From contig CAVPIE010000002.1 of NCBI GenBank assembly GCA_963704865.1, forward strand, positions 395,415-459,414: a DNA stretch of 64,000 nucleotides, read 5' to 3'. The notes under the pieces are model-generated. The model saw only the letters and a program-made list of their open reading frames with translations. It did no database searches and was not told where the DNA came from. This document shows, piece after piece, positions 478-36,898 of the stretch; within the stretch, counting starts at the first letter, position 1, and the number at the start of each line of letters is the position of its first letter. Origin of the DNA: an uncultured delta proteobacterium. Its GTDB lineage: Bacteria; Myxococcota_A; Polyangia; Polyangiales; Houyiibacteriaceae. A program made the position numbers and the translations under genes.

Positions 478-709
478 TCGAACCCCCGAGAGGAGATTCT
501 AGTGCAAGCGCGGGACGCAGCCATCCGAAGAACTCGTGTTTTTGCGAGTATTTTCCGGATCTGCGGCCCACATAACAGCAAGGCGGAGGCCTGGGTTGGC
601 TTATGGTGGCCGCACTGCTTACGATTTGACTGTGCAGATTCACACCTTGAGGGGGGTAAAACTCGAGGATTCCGTTCTCGGGGCGTCGAGCTCGCGGGCA
701 CGGCCTGTC

Positions 710-1687
710 ATGCGTGTGCTCGAGGAAGGGCTCGCGGCGGCGGCGCTTGCCATTCGGGCAAACGCGGGGGCGCTCTACGTCGGGCAGACGGTCGAGTCGC
801 TTCGCTGCATCGCCGCATCCGGGCCGGGCGCAAAGCTTCTGCTCGAGCGTGGAGCCCCGCTTGATCCAGGACTGGCGAAGCGCGCGTTTGGAAGACGGAC
901 CCCTTTCGTCGTCACCTCGCTTTCGTCCGATCCGCAGTTCTCGGCTCGCTCATCACACGTGACTCGGGTGGCCTTGCTCGCACCCTTGCACGACGGAGCG
1001 CGGCCGGTCGGAATCCTGCAGCTGGTAAACCCGGCCTCGCCCGCGCGTTTCACCAGCCGTGACAAGAAGGTCGTCGCAGGGCTGTCCAGCTACATCACGA
1101 CAGCGCTCATCCAAACCTCGTCGCTTCGGAGGCAGGCAGGGCTCGCCGCCCATGATCCACTAACCGGTCTTCGAAATGTAAGGAAGCTCAATAGCGAGCT
1201 GACCAAGGCCGTGAGCGCCGCGCGAAGAGGCGAACGCGACATGGCGATCATGTTCGTCGACGTCGACCACTTAAAGCGGGTGAACAGCAAGTTCGGGCAC
1301 GCTGCCGGGAGCGAAGCGCTGAAGCGAACGGGCAAGGCGCTGGACGAAGCCGCCGCCGGCGTGGGCGCCGTGTTCCGGTTCGGCGGCGACGAGTTCATCG
1401 TCGTGCAAAAGCGCGCGTCAAAAGAAAGCGCACGTGCGCTCGCAAACCATTTGCGAAGTCACGTCGCCGAGAGCACTGCAGGTTCAATGCGCCCCGGTGG
1501 GATGCTTCCGACGATTACAGTTTCGGTTGGAGTCGCGATGCTCAATGGCCTGCGTCATCTCAATGGTCAGCCGTCGAGTGACCTGAAGTCGCGCCTGATG
1601 ACGGCGGCCGACCGCGCGCTGTTCCGCGCAAAGGCTGCGGGCCGTAACCGCGTCGTCCTGGCAACGGGACGCGACGACCGGCTCTGA
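710..1687 (+). CDS. GAF domain-containing diguanylate cyclase (GGDEF)
   Basis: The C-terminus has MFVDVDHLKRVNSKFGHAAGSEALK and RFGGDEFIVV (intact GGDEF). The N-terminal ~150 aa look GAF-like. I chose ATG 710 (MRVLEEG...) because the 536 start extends into the divergent promoter region. I saw no RxxD I-site five residues upstream of GGDEF. Confidence 0.8.
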   Translation: MRVLEEGLAAAALAIRANAGALYVGQTVESLRCIAASGPGAKLLLERGAPLDPGLAKRAFGRRTPFVVTSLSSDPQFSARSSHVTRVALLAPLHDGARPVGILQLVNPASPARFTSRDKKVVAGLSSYITTALIQTSSLRRQAGLAAHDPLTGLRNVRKLNSELTKAVSAARRGERDMAIMFVDVDHLKRVNSKFGHAAGSEALKRTGKALDEAAAGVGAVFRFGGDEFIVVQKRASKESARALANHLRSHVAESTAGSMRPGGMLPTITVSVGVAMLNGLRHLNGQPSSDLKSRLMTAADRALFRAKAAGRNRVVLATGRDDRL

Positions 1688-1696
1688 ATCGACCGG

Positions 1697-4501
1697 CTAG
1701 GCCACCACAGACAGATACTGCTCGGTGTTCGACTCGATGCGAGCCCTGACCAGCGCAGCATCTTGTTCGACGAACTTCTCGTCGGGCGTGACCTTGAACA
1801 GCGGCTGGCCCTTGGACACGATCGTCCCGTTGGTCTCGACGAGAATCTTGTCTACGGTCCCAGCAAACGGCGCGTACACCTTGTTGAACATTTTCATGAC
1901 TTCGACGATGTAGAGCGGGTCGCCAATCTCGAAGTGTTGCCCCTCTTCGATGAAGCAGGGCATGCCTGGCGCTTCTTGCGCGTAGTACATGCCGCCGCTC
2001 ACGGCGACGATTTCATCCGCCCTGTTGACCGGAGGCGGGACGAGCACCTTCTTCATCTTCGTCTGGTGTTCGCGGTCGAAGAGCCGCGGAGGAATGCTGA
2101 TCGTCAGGTCCTCGTTCACGCGGAGGTCGAAGAAGCCTACCTTGTGCCCGATCAGAGGCAGCAGGCTGTAGAGCTCCATGCCGAGCTGAAAGCCGAGATG
2201 CGCTTCTCTAATTTGCTTCCATTGCTGTGCGTCGAAGCCCTTCGGGGCCTTCTTTACCTTGAGAGCATCGTCGAGCTTCGGCCAACTGGAGAGGCCCAGG
2301 CGTTCCTGCGCGGTTGCGTAGAACGCAGCCCCCTCCCGAAGCACCGCCTGATCCTGCTCCCAGATGCGATGGGCTGCCGGCAGCTTCACCCCGGCGTCCA
2401 TGTGGAGCAGATTGTACGTGTCAGAGAGGACCAGCAGTGGGTTCTTCAGCCAAGTCACGCGGCCGTTCTTGACTTCGAAGTTGCTCTTGTTCGAGCTGAG
2501 CCAGGCTGAAAACAGATGTGGTTGCCTCAAAATGCGGCCGAGCGGACGTCCAAGCAGGGTCTTTTTCAGAATGCACAGGTCGTTGGTGGCCTTTGCGGCG
2601 ACCGAATCGGTCGAAGCGGCCTTCAAGTACTGGCCGGCCAGGCGCTCGTAGGCATAGTCCGGGTCGATTTCGTTGGCCTCGTTCAAGAGCTCGCCGACCA
2701 AGGTCAGGTAGGGAACCACAAATCGAGTCGTCGGCTTTGCGTCGACCCCGTTCGCGAGGAACCAGTGCACGAGCCCGTAATGGAACTGCAGGTTGGTCTG
2801 AAGGTCGGGGCCCCGAAGGACCGTGCAACGAAGCACCTCACGCAGGCGTTCGTAGCTGCCACGGCGATCTTCGCCGGTCGTGACCAGAAGCGCGATGTTG
2901 CTGTCGTACGCGCCGGCCAGACGGTAGCGCATGAAAAGATCGGTATCGGGGTTCTTGAAGCAGATGCCCTGATCGTCGCGAACCTCACCTTCGATCGGGT
3001 CCGACCAAGACATGATCTCGCCTCCCGCATGCGGGGAGAGCGATTGATCGGTCGCATTGAGGCGCGCCTCCACCGCCGCCGCGTCGCGTTGAACGCGCTC
3101 TGGCCGGGGGAGCCGGGCTTTGTGTTTGGCGAGCAGGGCCATCGCCTCGACGATCGAGTGCACGTCGAAGAAATCCTCGGCGTCGTCCGGATTGCGGAAG
3201 CGGAGCGCGTAGCAAAGCTCGGAAACCCGATGCTCGACCTGAATGCGCGTGTTCACTTCCATGAAGTAGTGCCGCGGCCCATCGACGATGCATTCGAAGG
3301 TCGATGCCGAGTCGAGCTTGACCGCCTCGCCGAAGCGCTCGGCTTCCTCCTCCATGCGCCGGAGAATTTCGAGGTCCTGCTCAATCGCGTTGGCCTGAGC
3401 CTCATTGCCGGCGGCCCGCTCCCGCGCGACCGCAGCGGCGAGCGTCTCCTGCGTGATCGAAACCTCGAGGAGCTTCTGCTCGTGCATCTGAAGGGAGCAA
3501 TCGCGCCCTCCGAGTGAAACCGTCCATTCGCCGTTGCCGAGAAGCTGGATCTCGTTGTGGCGCGTCGTCTCGATGTTGAGCTCTACGAGGATGTTCTTGT
3601 TGTCACCGACGCCGAGCGCCTTCACTTCGCTCAGAATTTCTCGAACCATGGCTGGGGCCTGCTCGGCGCGGTCGACGATGCGTTGCCCTTTACCACCGCC
3701 TCCACCGATCGCCTTGAGACGAATGCGGCTGCCCTGGTTCTCTTCGAGGATATTCGCAACTTCGATTTTGATCTGCTCGGCGAGCTCGTCGACTGCATAA
3801 AGGTCGATGTGGGCATCGTAGGAAGCCCCAAGCAGCGCGTCGGCCAGAGCTTCTAGATTTACCGCATCGTCGCCGAGCTCGGGCACCTCGAGGCCATGCT
3901 TCTTGGCGAGCTTGCTGAGGGCCTTGCGGTCCGGATGGTTTTTGAGAATCAGCCGCGCCGTGGCATTGTTGATGCCAGGGGTCACGCTGACGTCGACACG
4001 CTCGGCGGTGCGCTTGGCCTCGTCCTTGAAACCGGCTGCCTGCACGGTGTAGGAGCAGGGGCCGATGAAGCGAAGGCCAGCCTCTTCAAGCGAGCGAACG
4101 AACTGTTCGTCCTCCGCCATGAAACCATAGCCAGCAAAAACGTAATCGTAACCGTTGACCTTCGCGATCTCGATGATCTGCTGGATGCGCTCCGCGCGCT
4201 CTTCCTTGCTCGCGCCGGTGTAGTCCGAAACCGAGTGAACGCGGGACGGGTCCAAGCGCCGAAGCTCGGGGGCCAGCGCTCGCGGGTAGACGATCGAGTC
4301 CTTTTCCGAAAGCAGGATCCCTACCCGGGTCATCCCCATCTCCTCGAAGATGTCGAGCGCCTCTCGCCGAATCGGTCCTCGGCAGACGATGAGGACGGTC
4401 ATGTCCTCGCACTCGAACGAACGCACCCACTCGGACTCGGAGCTTCCGAGGCGGCGGTCCCGATGAATCAGCGGGTTGTGCATGTAGCTGGTCGACGACA
4501 T
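1697..4501 (-). CDS. Biotin carboxylase fused to biotin carboxyl carrier domain (acyl-CoA carboxylase alpha chain), atypically long at 934 aa
   Basis: It has the ATP-grasp glycine loop KAIGGGGGKGQRIV and the catalytic block YFMEVNTRIQVEHRVSE. The C-terminal biotinyl-lysine motif is IVEVMKMFNKV. Its ATG directly abuts the upstream gene's stop (TAG-ATG junction at 4499-4504). Confidence 0.85.
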   Translation of the reverse strand: MSSTSYMHNPLIHRDRRLGSSESEWVRSFECEDMTVLIVCRGPIRREALDIFEEMGMTRVGILLSEKDSIVYPRALAPELRRLDPSRVHSVSDYTGASKEERAERIQQIIEIAKVNGYDYVFAGYGFMAEDEQFVRSLEEAGLRFIGPCSYTVQAAGFKDEAKRTAERVDVSVTPGINNATARLILKNHPDRKALSKLAKKHGLEVPELGDDAVNLEALADALLGASYDAHIDLYAVDELAEQIKIEVANILEENQGSRIRLKAIGGGGGKGQRIVDRAEQAPAMVREILSEVKALGVGDNKNILVELNIETTRHNEIQLLGNGEWTVSLGGRDCSLQMHEQKLLEVSITQETLAAAVARERAAGNEAQANAIEQDLEILRRMEEEAERFGEAVKLDSASTFECIVDGPRHYFMEVNTRIQVEHRVSELCYALRFRNPDDAEDFFDVHSIVEAMALLAKHKARLPRPERVQRDAAAVEARLNATDQSLSPHAGGEIMSWSDPIEGEVRDDQGICFKNPDTDLFMRYRLAGAYDSNIALLVTTGEDRRGSYERLREVLRCTVLRGPDLQTNLQFHYGLVHWFLANGVDAKPTTRFVVPYLTLVGELLNEANEIDPDYAYERLAGQYLKAASTDSVAAKATNDLCILKKTLLGRPLGRILRQPHLFSAWLSSNKSNFEVKNGRVTWLKNPLLVLSDTYNLLHMDAGVKLPAAHRIWEQDQAVLREGAAFYATAQERLGLSSWPKLDDALKVKKAPKGFDAQQWKQIREAHLGFQLGMELYSLLPLIGHKVGFFDLRVNEDLTISIPPRLFDREHQTKMKKVLVPPPVNRADEIVAVSGGMYYAQEAPGMPCFIEEGQHFEIGDPLYIVEVMKMFNKVYAPFAGTVDKILVETNGTIVSKGQPLFKVTPDEKFVEQDAALVRARIESNTEQYLSVVA

Positions 4502-7170: not shown

Positions 7171-9354
7171 GTGAATCGGGCCGGTCCGGCCGGTACACTG
7201 AACGCGATGGGGATCGAACCGGAGGTGGAGCAGGCCTGGGAACCAGGATCTGCGTGCTCGGCGGAAACGTTGGCAGCGCGGGTGCCCTTGAGCGCCGAGG
7301 AGCGCCGCTCGATGATGAGCTCACTCGGCCGACGCTACTTGGCGACGATGCTGATCTGCGCGGGGGTCGCCTACGAGGCGCTTGCGCTCGGCCACTGGTC
7401 GACCGGCGCCAATCAAACCGAGCTGAAGTTGATGACGATCTATGGGCTCGCTGGAATCGCGATGATTGCGCTCGGCTGGCGCGCCCATCATCAACCGCCG
7501 CGGCTCGCCTGGTCACTACACATCGGCGGATTGGCATTCCTCGTCGTCACCGCGACCGTCACGCTGGCGTACGCCCTGGGCGGGGATCCCTCGGATTTCT
7601 ACGTTTACTTGCTGATTCAGCTTGCAGCAGGGGCACTGGTTCACGACTGGCGGTGGCTCGCCGTGATCATGATCGCCGGGTACCTCGGCTGGGGGCTTAC
7701 TTCGCTTTGGGTGCCAGACGTCAACTGGATGAAGAGCTCTGGATACTTGTTCGGCTTCTCTGCGATCACGATCGGGATCCACCACGCGAGAAGCCGCGCA
7801 CTGATTCAAATGGAAGAGCTCCGGCTCGCGGCGGAGCGAGCCTCCCAGGCGAAGACGGATCTGCTCGCCAACGTGAGCCACGAGGTTCGCACGCCAATGA
7901 ACGGCGTCCTTGGTCTCAGCGCACTGCTTCTCGATACTGATCTCGATGAAAAGCAGAAGAAGATGATCGCCGCGATCCGGGAGTCCGCAGACGCGCTGGT
8001 CGGCATAGTCGACGAGATCCTCGACTTCTCACATCTTCAAAAGGGGCAGGTCGAGCTCGACACCGCTCCCTTCGACATGCGGGTGCTCATCGACGGCGTC
8101 GTCGAGCTCATGCAACCACGTGCTGACGCGAAGGGCATTCGCCTCGAATCGAAAACTCCGGGAATTACGAGCCAGCGGTTCCTGGGAGACAGCGGCCGCA
8201 TCCGCCAGGTGCTGCTCAACTTGGTGAACAACGCGATCAAGTTCACCGATGCGGGCTCTGTGCAGGTTCGGGGCGAGGTTGTGGACCGTTCCGAAAAGGC
8301 TCGAATTCGCCTTTCGGTCCGCGATACCGGTGTCGGGATTCCAGAGCATTTGCTCGATGGAATCTTTACCCGCTGTCGGCGGAGTAATAGCGGTTCGAAC
8401 CGAAGCACGGCGGGCAACGGTTTGGGCTTGGCGATCAGCAAACAGCTGGTCGAGCTCATGGGTGGGGAGCTCGGAGTCAGCAGCACGGTCGACGAGGGGA
8501 CTTGCTTTTGGGCCGAGTTCGATCTGGGATTCGGCCAAGACACCACCCTGCGCGTGATCGATACCGACGGCCGGAGCCAAGTGTTGATACGCGAGGGCGC
8601 GCTGGTGCTGGTCGCTGAAGACGACCCGACTAGCCGCATGGTGACCGAAGCGCTCTTGAGAAAGCTCTCGTGCGAGGTGGACATCGCGATCGACGGTCGA
8701 CAGGCACTCGAGAAAGCGAAAGCCAACGACTACGACATCGTTTTCATGGATTGCCACATGCCACTCATCGACGGCTACCAAGCCACGAAGCGCATTCGGC
8801 AGTCGCCGGACAAAAAAGAGCTGCCGATCGTCGCCCTCACCGCGAGCGTCGCCGAAAAAGACCGAGTGCGCTGCCTCGACGCAGGCATGAACGACGTGGT
8901 CTGCAAGCCGGTCCGGACCTCGATGCTCGCCAAGGCCTTGGAACGCTGGGTGCCTCTCTCTGGCGAACGCCCGACGAAGTCGGTGTCTACGCTTCCACCC
9001 CCGCCTGCGCTCGACCTCCGCATGGTTGGACAGCTCATCTCGCTCGACGGCGAAGATGACGAGTTCATCGAGGATGTCCTGCTGGGCTACGTCGATCAGC
9101 TCCGGGCGTGCGTGACGCAGATGAGAGGAGCTCTGGACGACGGTGACATGAATGCCGCACGCCTGAGCGCCCACACGGTCAAGGGAGCGAGCAAGCAAAT
9201 CGGTGCAACCCGCGTTGGCGAGCTTCTTGACGGAATCGAGGGCGAAACCAGCATCGACGCGGCGCGAAATCTCCTCGAGGTCGTCGAGCAGGAGCTCCCT
9301 CGCGTCGAAGAAGCAATTCGAGCGCTGCTGAGTCGATCGCGCCGCGCAGGCTAG
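7171..9354 (+). CDS. Hybrid sensor histidine kinase (multi-TM sensor, HisKA, HATPase, receiver, Hpt)
   Basis: The H-box is LANVSHEVRTPMNGV. ATPase boxes are LVNNAIKFT, DTGVGI and GNGLGLAI. The receiver has VLVAEDDP...DIVFMDCHMPLIDG...ALTASV, and the Hpt domain has SAHTVKGASKQIGA. Several hydrophobic helices lie at the N-terminus. The start is GTG 7171 or ATG 7207. Confidence 0.85.
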   Translation: MNRAGPAGTLNAMGIEPEVEQAWEPGSACSAETLAARVPLSAEERRSMMSSLGRRYLATMLICAGVAYEALALGHWSTGANQTELKLMTIYGLAGIAMIALGWRAHHQPPRLAWSLHIGGLAFLVVTATVTLAYALGGDPSDFYVYLLIQLAAGALVHDWRWLAVIMIAGYLGWGLTSLWVPDVNWMKSSGYLFGFSAITIGIHHARSRALIQMEELRLAAERASQAKTDLLANVSHEVRTPMNGVLGLSALLLDTDLDEKQKKMIAAIRESADALVGIVDEILDFSHLQKGQVELDTAPFDMRVLIDGVVELMQPRADAKGIRLESKTPGITSQRFLGDSGRIRQVLLNLVNNAIKFTDAGSVQVRGEVVDRSEKARIRLSVRDTGVGIPEHLLDGIFTRCRRSNSGSNRSTAGNGLGLAISKQLVELMGGELGVSSTVDEGTCFWAEFDLGFGQDTTLRVIDTDGRSQVLIREGALVLVAEDDPTSRMVTEALLRKLSCEVDIAIDGRQALEKAKANDYDIVFMDCHMPLIDGYQATKRIRQSPDKKELPIVALTASVAEKDRVRCLDAGMNDVVCKPVRTSMLAKALERWVPLSGERPTKSVSTLPPPPALDLRMVGQLISLDGEDDEFIEDVLLGYVDQLRACVTQMRGALDDGDMNAARLSAHTVKGASKQIGATRVGELLDGIEGETSIDAARNLLEVVEQELPRVEEAIRALLSRSRRAG

Positions 9355-35151: not shown

Positions 35152-35421
35152 GTGGATCCAATGGCAAATCACGATGAAAAACTAGGCTGGTGTCTACTCG
35201 AGACGCTCTACGAGCTCGGCCGCGCCGACATCGACGCAAACCCCGAGGTGCTGGCAACCTGGCTCGATGTTCCCGAAACCCGCGTTCAGGGGCTCTTGGC
35301 GCGGCTCGACGCGCAGGGCCTGGTCGATGGGACACGTTGCCGGCTCTCGATGCAGGGTTTGGTGCTTGCAGTCTCGATGCACGGCGCGCAGAAGCTGTCA
35401 CGGCAGTCCCTCGCCGCTTGA
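35152..35421 (+). CDS. Small winged-helix (MarR/DtxR-like) DNA-binding protein, hypothetical
   Basis: LATWLDVPETRVQGLLARLDAQGLVD is a typical recognition-helix/wing pattern. The start is GTG 35152 or ATG 35161. The ORF is preceded by an AT-richer spacer containing an 8-bp inverted repeat. Confidence 0.5.
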   Translation: MDPMANHDEKLGWCLLETLYELGRADIDANPEVLATWLDVPETRVQGLLARLDAQGLVDGTRCRLSMQGLVLAVSMHGAQKLSRQSLAA

Positions 35422-35427
35422 CCTGCC

Positions 35428-35456
35428 TTGACAGGCTGGGGCCCAACCACTATCCC
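35428..35456 (+). promoter_or_regulatory. Sigma70-type promoter candidate for tRNA-Leu
   Basis: TTGACA (35428-35433) is separated by 17 nt from TATCCC (35451-35456), which ends 12 nt before the mature tRNA 5' end. Confidence 0.5.
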
Positions 35457-35468
35457 GCCCTCTCTTCA

Positions 35469-35552
35469 GCGGAAGTGGCGGAATTGGCAGACGCGCATGA
35501 TTCAGGTTCATGTGTCCGCAAGGACGTGGAGGTTCGAGTCCTCTCTTCCGCA
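35469..35552 (+). tRNA. tRNA-Leu (anticodon CAG), class II with long variable arm
   Basis: I folded the cloverleaf by hand. The acceptor stem is GCGGAAG/CTTCCGC. The anticodon stem CATGA/TCATG carries the loop TTCAGGT, giving anticodon CAG. The variable arm is TGTCCGCAAGGACGT and the T arm is GGAGG-TTCGAGT-CCTCT. The discriminator is A. CCA is not encoded; the next bases are CCC. Confidence 0.9.
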
Positions 35553-36050
35553 CCCGGCGCGTTGTAGGTGCCACTCGTGTATCCACGAGGTCTCGACCTA
35601 CGGTGTACTCGGCACCCTTCGGGCGCCTGCGTACTGCGCCTGGAATGCGCCAGCTCCGTGGACTTCGTCCACTCCGACTTTGCCGTATTCCAGTCGCAAC
35701 CGAGTCCTCTCTTCCGCACCCGGCGCGTTGTAGGTGCCACTCGTGTATCCACGAGGTCTCGACCTACGGTGTGCTCGGCACCCTTCGGGCGCCTGCGTAC
35801 TGCGCCTGGAATGCGCCAGCTCCGTGGACTTCGTCCACTCCGACTTTGCCGTATTCCAGTCGCAACCGAGTCCTCTCTTCCGCACCCGGCGCGTTGTAGG
35901 TGCCACTCGTGTATCCACGAGGTCTCGACCTACGGTGTACTCGGCACCTTTGGGGGCTGCGTACTGTGACTGGAATCTGGCAGCTACGCGGACTGGGGTC
36001 CGCTTCGCTTTGCCATATTCCAGTCACAACCGAGTCCTCTTAAGCCGCGC
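35535..36050 (+). repeat. Tandem array of a 166-nt unit that begins inside the tRNA-Leu T-loop and re-duplicates the tRNA 3' end
   Basis: CGAGTCCTCT recurs at 35535, 35701, 35867 and 36031, giving spacings of 166, 166 and 164. Units 1 and 2 differ at a single base (35607 A versus 35773 G). Unit 3 matches unit 1 (A at the variable site) for about 80 nt and then diverges. The fourth copy is only a stub. Confidence 0.9.
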
Positions 36051-36228
36051 GTGCCTGTTGCTGGGGTTGCTCGCGTCGGGTTCAGGGCGCGTGGGTTGTT
36101 GCTGGGAGGTCCGTGTCGGGGCGCTAGGTCTGCATTCTTTTCATAGGGGGTGCAGGTTGTTTATAGCTGTGATGGTTTGGGGCTGGATGGTTTTGTTTGA
36201 TTTCAGCTAGTTAGCGGGGCTCTCACTT

Positions 36229-36244
36229 CGGTACGGGAGTTGCA
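36229..36244 (+). promoter_or_regulatory. Sigma54 (-24/-12) promoter candidate for the minor-pilin operon
   Basis: cGGtACGggagTTGCA compares with the consensus TGGCACG-N4-TTGCW. GG and GC are at the correct spacing, with two mismatches. The motif ends 12 nt before the GTG at 36257. Confidence 0.45.
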
Positions 36245-36256
36245 TCTATAGCGGAC

Positions 36257-36898
36257 GTGGATGGAAATCATAGAAATCGGCGCGAGGGGCTGACGCTGGT
36301 GGAGCTCATGGTCGTCTTGGTGGTCATGGGCGTGCTGGTGAGCGCTGCCATGCCGAACATCGGCGACGGTTTCGCCGACCGCCGTGTCGCCATGGTGGCT
36401 CGGGACGTGGCGTCGCTGTTCCAGCGCGCTCGCTACATGTCGATGGCCTACGGCCGCGCGCACCAGGTCACCTACGAAAGCGACGGCGGCACGGGCCTCG
36501 CCAACGGCAACCCGTACGCTTTTGAGACCCTGCGCGGCACCAGCGGTGGTTGCGCGCTGACCAGCTTCGAGAATGTGGGCGGCACAGTCCTCGCCGACAT
36601 GGACTGCGGCGCCAACTGGCGCTGCGTCGACAACGTGTACCCCGATACCTACGATTCAGACCCTGGCGACAACGATCTCATTCGGGTGGACGGGCACAAC
36701 TACGCCACGTTTTGCTACGAGGCGGGCTCGAACAACCAGGTGTTCATCGACTCGGTCCTGTTTTCGAACTGGCAGGTCAACCCCGTGCAGTCCGGATTCG
36801 GGTTCCTGGTGTATCGCCAACTCGACGGCCACGCGATCGGCGTCGCGCGAAAGGTTTTGGTTCCGTCGGGGACCGGCACACCACGGATACTGCGATGA
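36257..36898 (+). CDS. fimT: Type IV pilus minor pilin, GspH/FimT(FimU)-like
   Basis: The prepilin leader and cleavage/methylation motif read MDGNHRNRREG|LTLVELMVVLVVMGVL. A GspH-like segment follows (RRVAMVARDVASLFQRAR). Confidence 0.75.
   Translation: MDGNHRNRREGLTLVELMVVLVVMGVLVSAAMPNIGDGFADRRVAMVARDVASLFQRARYMSMAYGRAHQVTYESDGGTGLANGNPYAFETLRGTSGGCALTSFENVGGTVLADMDCGANWRCVDNVYPDTYDSDPGDNDLIRVDGHNYATFCYEAGSNNQVFIDSVLFSNWQVNPVQSGFGFLVYRQLDGHAIGVARKVLVPSGTGTPRILR

Follow-up and report, generated by a model that had tools for sequence, protein, structure and literature searches.

The subject of this analysis is a tRNA-Leu(CAG) gene and the tandem array of 166-nt units that follows it in a 64-kb stretch of DNA from an uncultured member of the Polyangiales (contig CAVPIE010000002.1; the whole stretch of 64,000 nucleotides is called the window). 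The array is probably a three-copy amplification of a conserved, structured tRNA-Leu trailer of approximately 150 nt that belongs to an uncultured Polyangiales clade, and its units would be co-transcribed with the tRNA and then released. Confidence is high that the element is locally amplified, conserved and structured, moderate that it acts as a plus-strand RNA co-transcribed with the tRNA, and low as to the mode in which the units would be released.

Organization and origin of the array

The first-pass annotation of the window had described a tRNA-Leu(CAG) followed by a 166-nt tandem array that copies the 3' end of the tRNA again, and ARAGORN, Rfam and Tandem Repeats Finder (TRF) agreed with this description. 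One array was detected by TRF at 35535-36040, with a period of 166, 3.1 copies and 93% matches, and each 166-nt unit carries the last 18-20 nt of tRNA-Leu. The 18-mer CGAGTCCTCTCTTCCGCA, which extends from the T-loop through the discriminator base, was found exactly where it had been annotated, at 35535, 35701 and 35867 with a truncated fourth copy at 36031, and nowhere else in the 64 kb. Three matches were reached in none of 100 shuffles. The discriminator A of the tRNA is located at 35552, and CCA is not encoded, CCC being in its place. The features, all on the plus strand, are as follows.

35428..35456, +, promoter-like site of the tRNA: -35 TTGACA (35428-35433), 17-nt spacer, -10 TATCCC (35451-35456)
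35469..35554, +, tRNA-Leu(CAG) (ARAGORN; Rfam tRNA model, 52.4 bits)
35535..35700, +, repeat unit 1, in the DNA register that opens with the last 18-20 nt of the tRNA (TRF, repeat search, fold, 75-unit alignment A2)
35564-35601, +, lineage-specific hairpin 1 of unit 1 (fold, alignment)
35587-35595, +, anti-T block of unit 1, GAGGTCTCG (alignment)
35611-35627, +, hairpin P2 of unit 1 (fold, alignment)
35635-35698, +, hairpin P3 of unit 1 (fold, alignment)
35701..35866, +, repeat unit 2, 99% identical to unit 1 (A to G at 35777)
35701-35720, +, tRNA 3' copy of unit 2
35753-35761, +, anti-T block of unit 2
35777-35793, +, P2 of unit 2
35801-35864, +, P3 of unit 2
35867..36030, +, repeat unit 3, 164 nt, with the same 5' half as units 1 and 2 and a degenerate P2
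35965-36028, +, P3 of unit 3, of the GCGGAC/GUCCGC type and of a different, older lineage (identity comparison)
36031..36040, +, terminal partial copy of the tRNA 3' end, CGAGTCCTCT followed by TAAG (sequence; present at the ends of single units in relatives)

A single base separates unit 1 from unit 2. The match with unit 3 extends over approximately the first 90 nt, beyond which this unit departs from the other two and shows a net deletion of 2 nt, in agreement with the later divergence that had been annotated. No further copies of the unit were found elsewhere in the 64-kb window.

All internal junctions of arrays were found to read in the same way: an arm of hairpin 3, CA(A/C)(C/G), CGAGTCCTCTCTTCCGCACC and then the next unit, while the last unit ends in CGAGTCCTCT-TAAG. 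These junctions appear to be the exact product of unequal crossing-over or slippage between the CGAGTCCTCT of the tRNA and the partial copy that ends a single unit. Such an event would regenerate the full tRNA 3' end before each new unit, and because it accounts for the junctions, no recombinase is needed. The terminal partial copy at 36031..36040 would accordingly be the ancestral distal repeat, and it is complementary to the anti-T block.

Sister units within arrays were 74% to 99% identical, which indicates that the arrays differ in age. The array of the window is itself a mosaic. Its three 5' halves are identical, whereas the P3 of units 1 and 2 agrees at 95% with that of other species and at 78% with its counterpart in unit 3. 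For unit 3, in turn, the identity of P3 is 95% with the related locus L009 and 78% with unit 1 (L-numbers denote related loci). This mosaic points to recombination or gene conversion among units.

Since just one base in 166 nt, roughly the length of a read, distinguishes units 1 and 2, it was considered whether a short-read assembler had expanded or mis-joined the repeat, so that the three copies would be an assembly artefact. The contig of L003 (89% protein identity) ends at 8721, approximately 110 nt past the gene for a GT39 glycosyltransferase and just before the tRNA and unit region, and a repeat array at that place may have caused the assembly to break off. However, the distinct sequence of unit 3 means that no fewer than two unlike units must exist. 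Arrays of 2-3 units also recurred in independent assemblies and were in some cases identical across three metagenomes (L027=L045=L103 and L044=L060=L069). An artefact is therefore hardly credible.

Conservation in relatives and linkage to tRNA-Leu

Relatives were sampled in two ways. A one-genome-per-species scan anchored on the tRNA only yielded 24 metagenome-assembled genomes (MAGs), and a metagenome scan with the conserved 5' block of the unit, the pattern of which contained no tRNA sequence, yielded 81 loci; L030-L110 stem from samples of coastal and marine sediment. The GT39 glycosyltransferase encoded upstream of the tRNA (869 aa) had homologues from 95% down to 58% identity, and the named sources of these homologues were Polyangiales or Myxococcales (Myxococcota) MAGs. 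The syntenic gene order was RelA/SpoT, GT39, an 86-aa helix-turn-helix (HTH) gene, tRNA-Leu(CAG), pilin-like genes and PilY1. In the syntenic relatives, tRNA-Leu(CAG) was followed by a single spacer copy that already ended in a partial tRNA 3' copy, CAACCGAGTCCTCT-TAAG; in L005 the spacer was shorter and lacked the long hairpin. The sequence of the tRNA-Leu(CAG) itself was identical across 47 related loci.

Array heads were classed in an nhmmer census, in which 91 heads were informative; 13 heads at contig edges are outside this number. A full tRNA-Leu(CAG) adjoined 47 heads. Another 11 adjoined a full second tRNA-Leu with the anticodon AAG (ARAGORN), the acceptor, D and T arms of which are the same as those of the CAG tRNA, and 27 adjoined a displaced 3' fragment of the AAG tRNA of approximately 50 nt. 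A fragment consisting of the T-arm and acceptor only was found at 2 heads, and 4 heads adjoined something else. A tRNA-Leu 3' end was thus present at 87 of the 91 heads, and the orientation of the unit was always that of the tRNA. The link to the tRNA that had been annotated was upheld among the relatives, but the tandem state was not conserved: complete arrays contained one copy in 60 loci, two in 17 and three in 2. The array of the window is one of the two largest in the census and appears to be a local three-copy amplification of an element that is usually single-copy in relatives. The scatter expected of a generic dispersed repeat, similar to repetitive extragenic palindromes or miniature inverted-repeat transposable elements (many copies unrelated to one gene type), was not seen in the 64-kb window or in the 91-head census.

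The genes downstream of the unit were unlike between the CAG and AAG loci, which indicates that the unit is linked to the tRNA and not to a neighbouring operon. The possibility that the unit is part of the downstream pilin operon was rejected because the AAG-linked units have other downstream genes. The AAG tRNA-Leu with the same unit was observed in L047, L049, L051, L055, L062, L081-L083, L086, L099 and L107 (for example, L081:2067-2153:-). In bacteria, tRNAs with A34 other than tRNA-Arg are unusual.

The region between the array and the pilin-like genes was also inspected. A sigma54-type -24/-12 motif, GGTACGGGAGTTGCA (36230-36244), is located just 5' of the first pilin-like gene (36257-36898), and a palindrome, CTGCATTCTTTTCATAGGGGGTGCAG (36130-36155), lies approximately 75 nt upstream of this motif. 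Both were kept across the clade, also in L013, L021 and L024, which lack the unit, and they look like the enhancer and promoter of the pilin-like operon. The array places the tRNA approximately 330 nt further from this putative promoter.

Variants of the unit were observed as well. Natural deletion variants included the short units of L049, L051 and L068 and those of L005/L017, L019, L080, L092 and L106; in some of them the interior of P3 was gone between two CGTATT repeats, and others stopped after P2. In L016 and L029, the terminal or inter-unit repeat was another 3'-end-like sequence, CGAGTCCCACCGGCACC, with units ending in CGAGTCCCACCGGCA, and not the tRNA-Leu end; L029 had three copies with a period of 178 nt. 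This repeat may represent either a copy that has decayed or another tRNA's end.

Structure, strand and transcription of the unit

The stems listed in the first-pass annotation were all present in the window and in the minimum free energy (MFE) folds, with z = -4.0 and -5.9 relative to dinucleotide shuffles. When P3 of unit 3 was compared with that of unit 1, three two-sided, pair-preserving changes were found, and two mismatches had become pairs. The U-A to C-G change in the inner stem, which had been annotated as compensatory, is one of the three and is real; the other two are changes from C-G to U-A.

Alignment A2 was built from 75 distinct full-length units, and its structure was obtained with RNAalifold and manual extension. 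The consensus consisted of a small 5' stem (P1), an invariant block, a GC-rich hairpin (P2) and a long interrupted hairpin (P3). In this alignment, 95.2% of the cells were paired versus 90.2% in shuffles, and none of 500 shuffles was as high. Pairs with two-sided changes numbered 14, the shuffle mean being 10.5 (1/500 as high), and there were 155 cells with two-sided changes where 46 were expected (0/500 as high). The covariation score was 0.181 versus 0.090 in shuffles and was 0.03-0.05 when partners were slid by 1-3 columns, a control that keeps the relatedness among sequences. At the base of P3, subgroups of units had wholly different yet complementary sequences, for example, GGCGTT/AACGCC. 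The strong covariation of P1, P2 and P3 supports selection on structure, and the earlier proposal of such selection was borne out for P2 and P3 against both the shuffle and the slid-partner controls. In diverged sister copies from one array, 27-32 of 33 pairs were kept, and 17 differences were two-sided and pair-preserving. The extra copies are therefore not simply decaying.

Hairpin 1 (GTAGGT/ACCTAC around CTCGTG/CACGAG) had been taken for a regular part of the unit, but it was not kept in relatives. It rests on substitutions seen only in the units of the window, as judged against L018, the closest relative for this half of the unit, and these substitutions include T36C in an otherwise near-invariant block. 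Apparently, this hairpin is a lineage-specific novelty and not a feature of the family. It was also considered that the 3' half of the unit might be a degenerate copy of tRNA-Leu, with D-arm-like motifs (GGAAT..GGCAG..ACGCG). This was rejected as not significant: the Smith-Waterman p values for ten species ranged from 0.017 to 1.0 versus dinucleotide shuffles.

The most conserved block of the unit, GAGGAC(A)TCG, was found to be the reverse complement of the tRNA fragment at the end of every unit, CGAGTCCTC; this complementarity had been overlooked in the earlier annotation. The two halves of the resulting helix, P0, are the anti-T block GAGGACUCG and the copied T-loop/T-stem fragment CGAGUCCUC. 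P0 was predicted around P2 and P3 in the MFE and centroid folds of canonical units and in the MFE folds of L018, L009 and L014. The complementarity between the anti-T block and the tRNA copy was at least 8/9 in 68 of 74 units, and the block occurred in only 2 of 2000 shuffled units. L005 lacked P3 and kept both halves of P0, and short units without the interior of P3 still ended in the tRNA fragment. We infer that the element is built to use the copied tRNA end, which would close each unit.

Transcription of the unit was assessed from the flanking signals. The tRNA had been annotated as having a good sigma70 promoter, and this assessment was correct for the -35 element, which is perfect; the -10 element is weak, and the site was missed by a consensus scan. 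The motif TTGACA..TATC(C/T)C was kept in L001-L005. It had also been stated that no terminator precedes the array, and since the array begins inside the tRNA, a terminator between the two is impossible. In one subclade of 12 loci, a canonical terminator (GGCCCGTCGGACGGGCC followed by TTTGTTTAT) was found 3-7 nt past the last unit, also after 2-unit arrays, which would place the unit inside the tRNA transcription unit in that subclade.

From these features, the following mechanism may be proposed. The element would be transcribed together with the tRNA from the tRNA promoter, and each unit would fold as an independent domain closed by the helix between the anti-T block and the tRNA copy. The units would be separated at the junctions, which repeat the 3' end of the tRNA and the start of the trailer, that is, the site at which the tRNA is cut off. 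The outcome would be RNAs of approximately 165 nt, the dose of which would scale with copy number and which might serve in cis in tRNA-Leu maturation or as trans-acting RNAs.

Several observations weigh against this reading. P0 was present in the MFE fold of just 36 of the 74 units, with a mean pair probability of 0.52, and it showed no covariation, both of its sides being nearly invariant; GAGGAC was, moreover, part of the metagenome search pattern and was thus fixed by ascertainment. In the units of the window, P0 pairs at 8/9 positions, with one mismatch (A43T), and hairpin 1 competes with it at 1-2 kcal/mol. No clear terminator was found past the array in the window. The unit junctions lack the 5' halves of the acceptor and T stems, so RNase P and RNase Z would see no tRNA-like substrate there. 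Finally, A-C/C-A cells, partly at the base of P3, which would be G-U on the minus strand, were present at 94:155 (57), 95:154 (33), 110:140 (10) and 116:131 (6).

The wobble-pair test of strand was accordingly mixed, and these A-C cells are what could be expected if the product were not a plus-strand trailer but an antisense (minus-strand) RNA or else a hairpin or cruciform in the DNA. However, P1 contained 38 G-U cells versus 8 A-C cells, and G111-U139 was G-U in 60 of 75 units, both of which fit the plus strand. The orientation of the unit always follows that of the tRNA, the terminator, where present, is on the plus strand after the unit, and no minus-strand promoter is evident in the window. 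A minus-strand or DNA-level product is thus extremely improbable.

Comparison with mobile elements and known tRNA trailers

Direct repeats of the tRNA 3' end, from the T-loop on, lie on both sides of each unit, and such a tRNA end is a classic integrase target. The units could therefore be viewed as miniature or decayed integrative elements with attachment (att)-type tRNA 3' flanks, the arrays as a result of repeated site-specific integration, and the conserved parts as arms for a recombinase or accessory protein. The array of the window does mix two old P3 lineages. In the same clade, moreover, tRNA-Leu(AAG) marks a hot spot of integration, where 50-nt copies of the tRNA stand in tandem and toxin-antitoxin cargo was observed. 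The tandem copies at the AAG locus start at the same position of the anticodon loop, each after a related arm sequence. Up to three of them were observed, in L097 (reverse-strand ~675-3190) and L081 (~1930-2570), and the inserts encode a ParE toxin (L097:874-1212:-) and, in L056 (2921-3328), a PIN toxin. For one insert at the AAG locus, the left junction is the 20-nt tRNA copy that terminates a unit; it looks as though a junction of the array had been used as a secondary attachment site for this insert.

Against an integrative origin, no integrase was found, as had been annotated, among the open reading frames (ORFs) flanking the array of the window, nor was one encoded in the syntenic loci, where the genes are those for RelA/SpoT, GT39, the HTH protein, pilin-like proteins and PilY1. 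Beside the displaced tRNA-Leu(AAG) fragments, too, no integrase was found in the sequence pieces, which contained accessory genes and ParE and PIN toxins only. No viral contig carried the diagnostic block, and the unit had no blastn match in phages or plasmids. A scan of viral sequences with a 17-mer gave 14 loci, none of which contained the unit by nhmmer, and these were dismissed as chance matches. At the end of single units, the tRNA sequence measures just 10-13 nt, in contrast to the 50 nt that real insertions leave behind. Compensatory changes in stems would not be expected of double-stranded protein-binding sites, and the junctions are explained by unequal crossing-over without a recombinase. 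We consider an integrative origin very unlikely. The units resemble att sites with tandem islet accretion in that tRNA 3' direct repeats flank them and the arrays can grow; they differ in having no integrase or cargo, RNA-type covariation and vertical conservation at a syntenic chromosomal site. Our reading is that they are a chromosomal trailer, the copied tRNA ends of which can serve as recombination targets.

In a search of the window and of canonical units from relatives with Rfam 15, only the tRNA model matched, in accordance with the earlier statement that the units belong to no described RNA family. What had not been recognized is that their layout is that of the tyrT locus of Escherichia coli. 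With the same tools, tyrT/tyrV was found to be followed by 3.1 copies of a 178-nt unit, and the final 19 nt of tRNA-Tyr recur at the end of each copy; the annotation of the locus names rttR and tpr. The model of the RtT family, RF00391, matched every E. coli copy with 133-137 bits. The same model had no match at E<=10 in the window at 35300-36300 or in the canonical unit of L018, and none at the gathering score (45 bits) in five related loci. In the curated RtT structure, the unit is closed by GGGGAAGGAU paired with AUCCUUCCCC, the copied tRNA fragment. In PMC3318445 and PMC4986893, rtT is cited as a processed RNA. According to the literature, it is released from the tyrT transcript in the course of tRNA processing and has ties to the stringent response or amino-acid limitation; RtT dates from 1991, and its mode of action is still termed unknown.

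The likeness between RtT and the element studied here (the Leu element) extends to several features. In both, a tRNA gene is followed by approximately 3.1 same-strand tandem copies of a unit of 166-178 nt, each unit ends in the last 18-20 nt of the tRNA, from the T-loop on, and the stretch from the tRNA to the repeats contains no terminator. In RtT, an internal block forms a helix with the copied tRNA end (GGGGAAGGAU/AUCCUUCCCC), and an equivalent helix (GAGGAC(A)UCG/CGAGUCCUC) is predicted for the Leu element. The two sequences are unrelated, however, and have no covariance-model similarity. The tRNA is tRNA-Tyr in one case and tRNA-Leu in the other, and the hosts are Gammaproteobacteria and Myxococcota, respectively. 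The inner architecture of the Leu element, with P1, P2 and the long P3, is unlike that of RtT. Unlike RtT, the Leu element also has no tpr-like ORF, does not encode CCA and usually occurs in one copy. No reading frame was free of stops in more than 44 of the 75 units, and indels in the loops break the frames; a conserved Tpr-like peptide was therefore rejected. In addition, RtT has been seen as a processed RNA, whereas for the Leu element such processing is predicted. It may be concluded that the Leu element has the architecture of RtT and is not a member of the RtT family, but rather a second, independent example of the RtT design in a distant phylum. No myxobacterial precedent was found.

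A gene for a RelA/SpoT-family (p)ppGpp synthetase/hydrolase was present near upstream in all syntenic loci (L001-L005, 3370-5514, minus strand) and, by synteny only, is placed approximately 3 kb upstream of the tRNA in the window. Its coincidence with the stringent-response link of RtT is probably fortuitous.

RtT is assigned to the class 'Cis-reg' in Rfam, and the Leu element, too, might act only in cis on tRNA-Leu, in its folding, 3'-end formation or termination or as an insulator, without giving rise to a stable RNA; extra copies would then be neutral or mildly useful. The strict tie of the unit to tRNA-Leu 3' ends at two different loci and its occurrence as one copy in most genomes are consistent with such a role, as is the fact that the anti-T block has two possible partners, the downstream copy and, approximately 45 nt upstream, the T-arm strand of the tRNA itself. 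However, L013, L021 and L024 have the same tRNA with a simple hairpin in place of the unit, which indicates that the tRNA does not need the unit. The fold is kept in diverged extra copies, and the long P3 with its conserved internal loops is more elaborate than a terminator requires. A role confined to cis is rather unlikely for these reasons, and the co-transcribed and released trailer is preferred.

Functional RNAs from tRNA-Leu trailers exist in E. coli. The 3'ETS-leuZ of the glyW-cysT-leuZ transcript is freed by tRNA 3'-end processing; it is short and single-copy, ends at the operon terminator and acts as an Hfq-dependent sponge. It is similar to the Leu element, which would likewise be the trailer of a tRNA-Leu transcript. 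It differs in having no copied tRNA 3' end and no repetition, and the two are not related in sequence.

A wider interpretation may be offered as speculation, and as a whole it is unlikely to hold. The anti-T block and the copied tRNA end could be a convergent functional module of tRNA operons, present as RtT in Enterobacteria and as the Leu element in Myxococcota. The released, copy-tunable RNA, with its invariant block GAGGAC(A)UCG..ACGGUGUACUC, would pair with the T-arm strand of the tRNA-Leu precursor or engage 3'-end enzymes and thereby couple tRNA-Leu supply to a regulatory response. The copied ends would in addition be decoy integration sites and, if so, would spare the tRNA gene.

The finding is not categorically new; the design itself has stood unexplained for 30 years. 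The Leu element provides a candidate RNA family without an Rfam model, represented by 75 distinct sequences with clear covariation, and a set of natural variants with one, two or three copies or without P3. That the same unusual plan recurs in a distant phylum, although the sequences are unrelated, speaks for selection on the plan itself and draws attention to the predicted pairing between the anti-T block and the tRNA copy.

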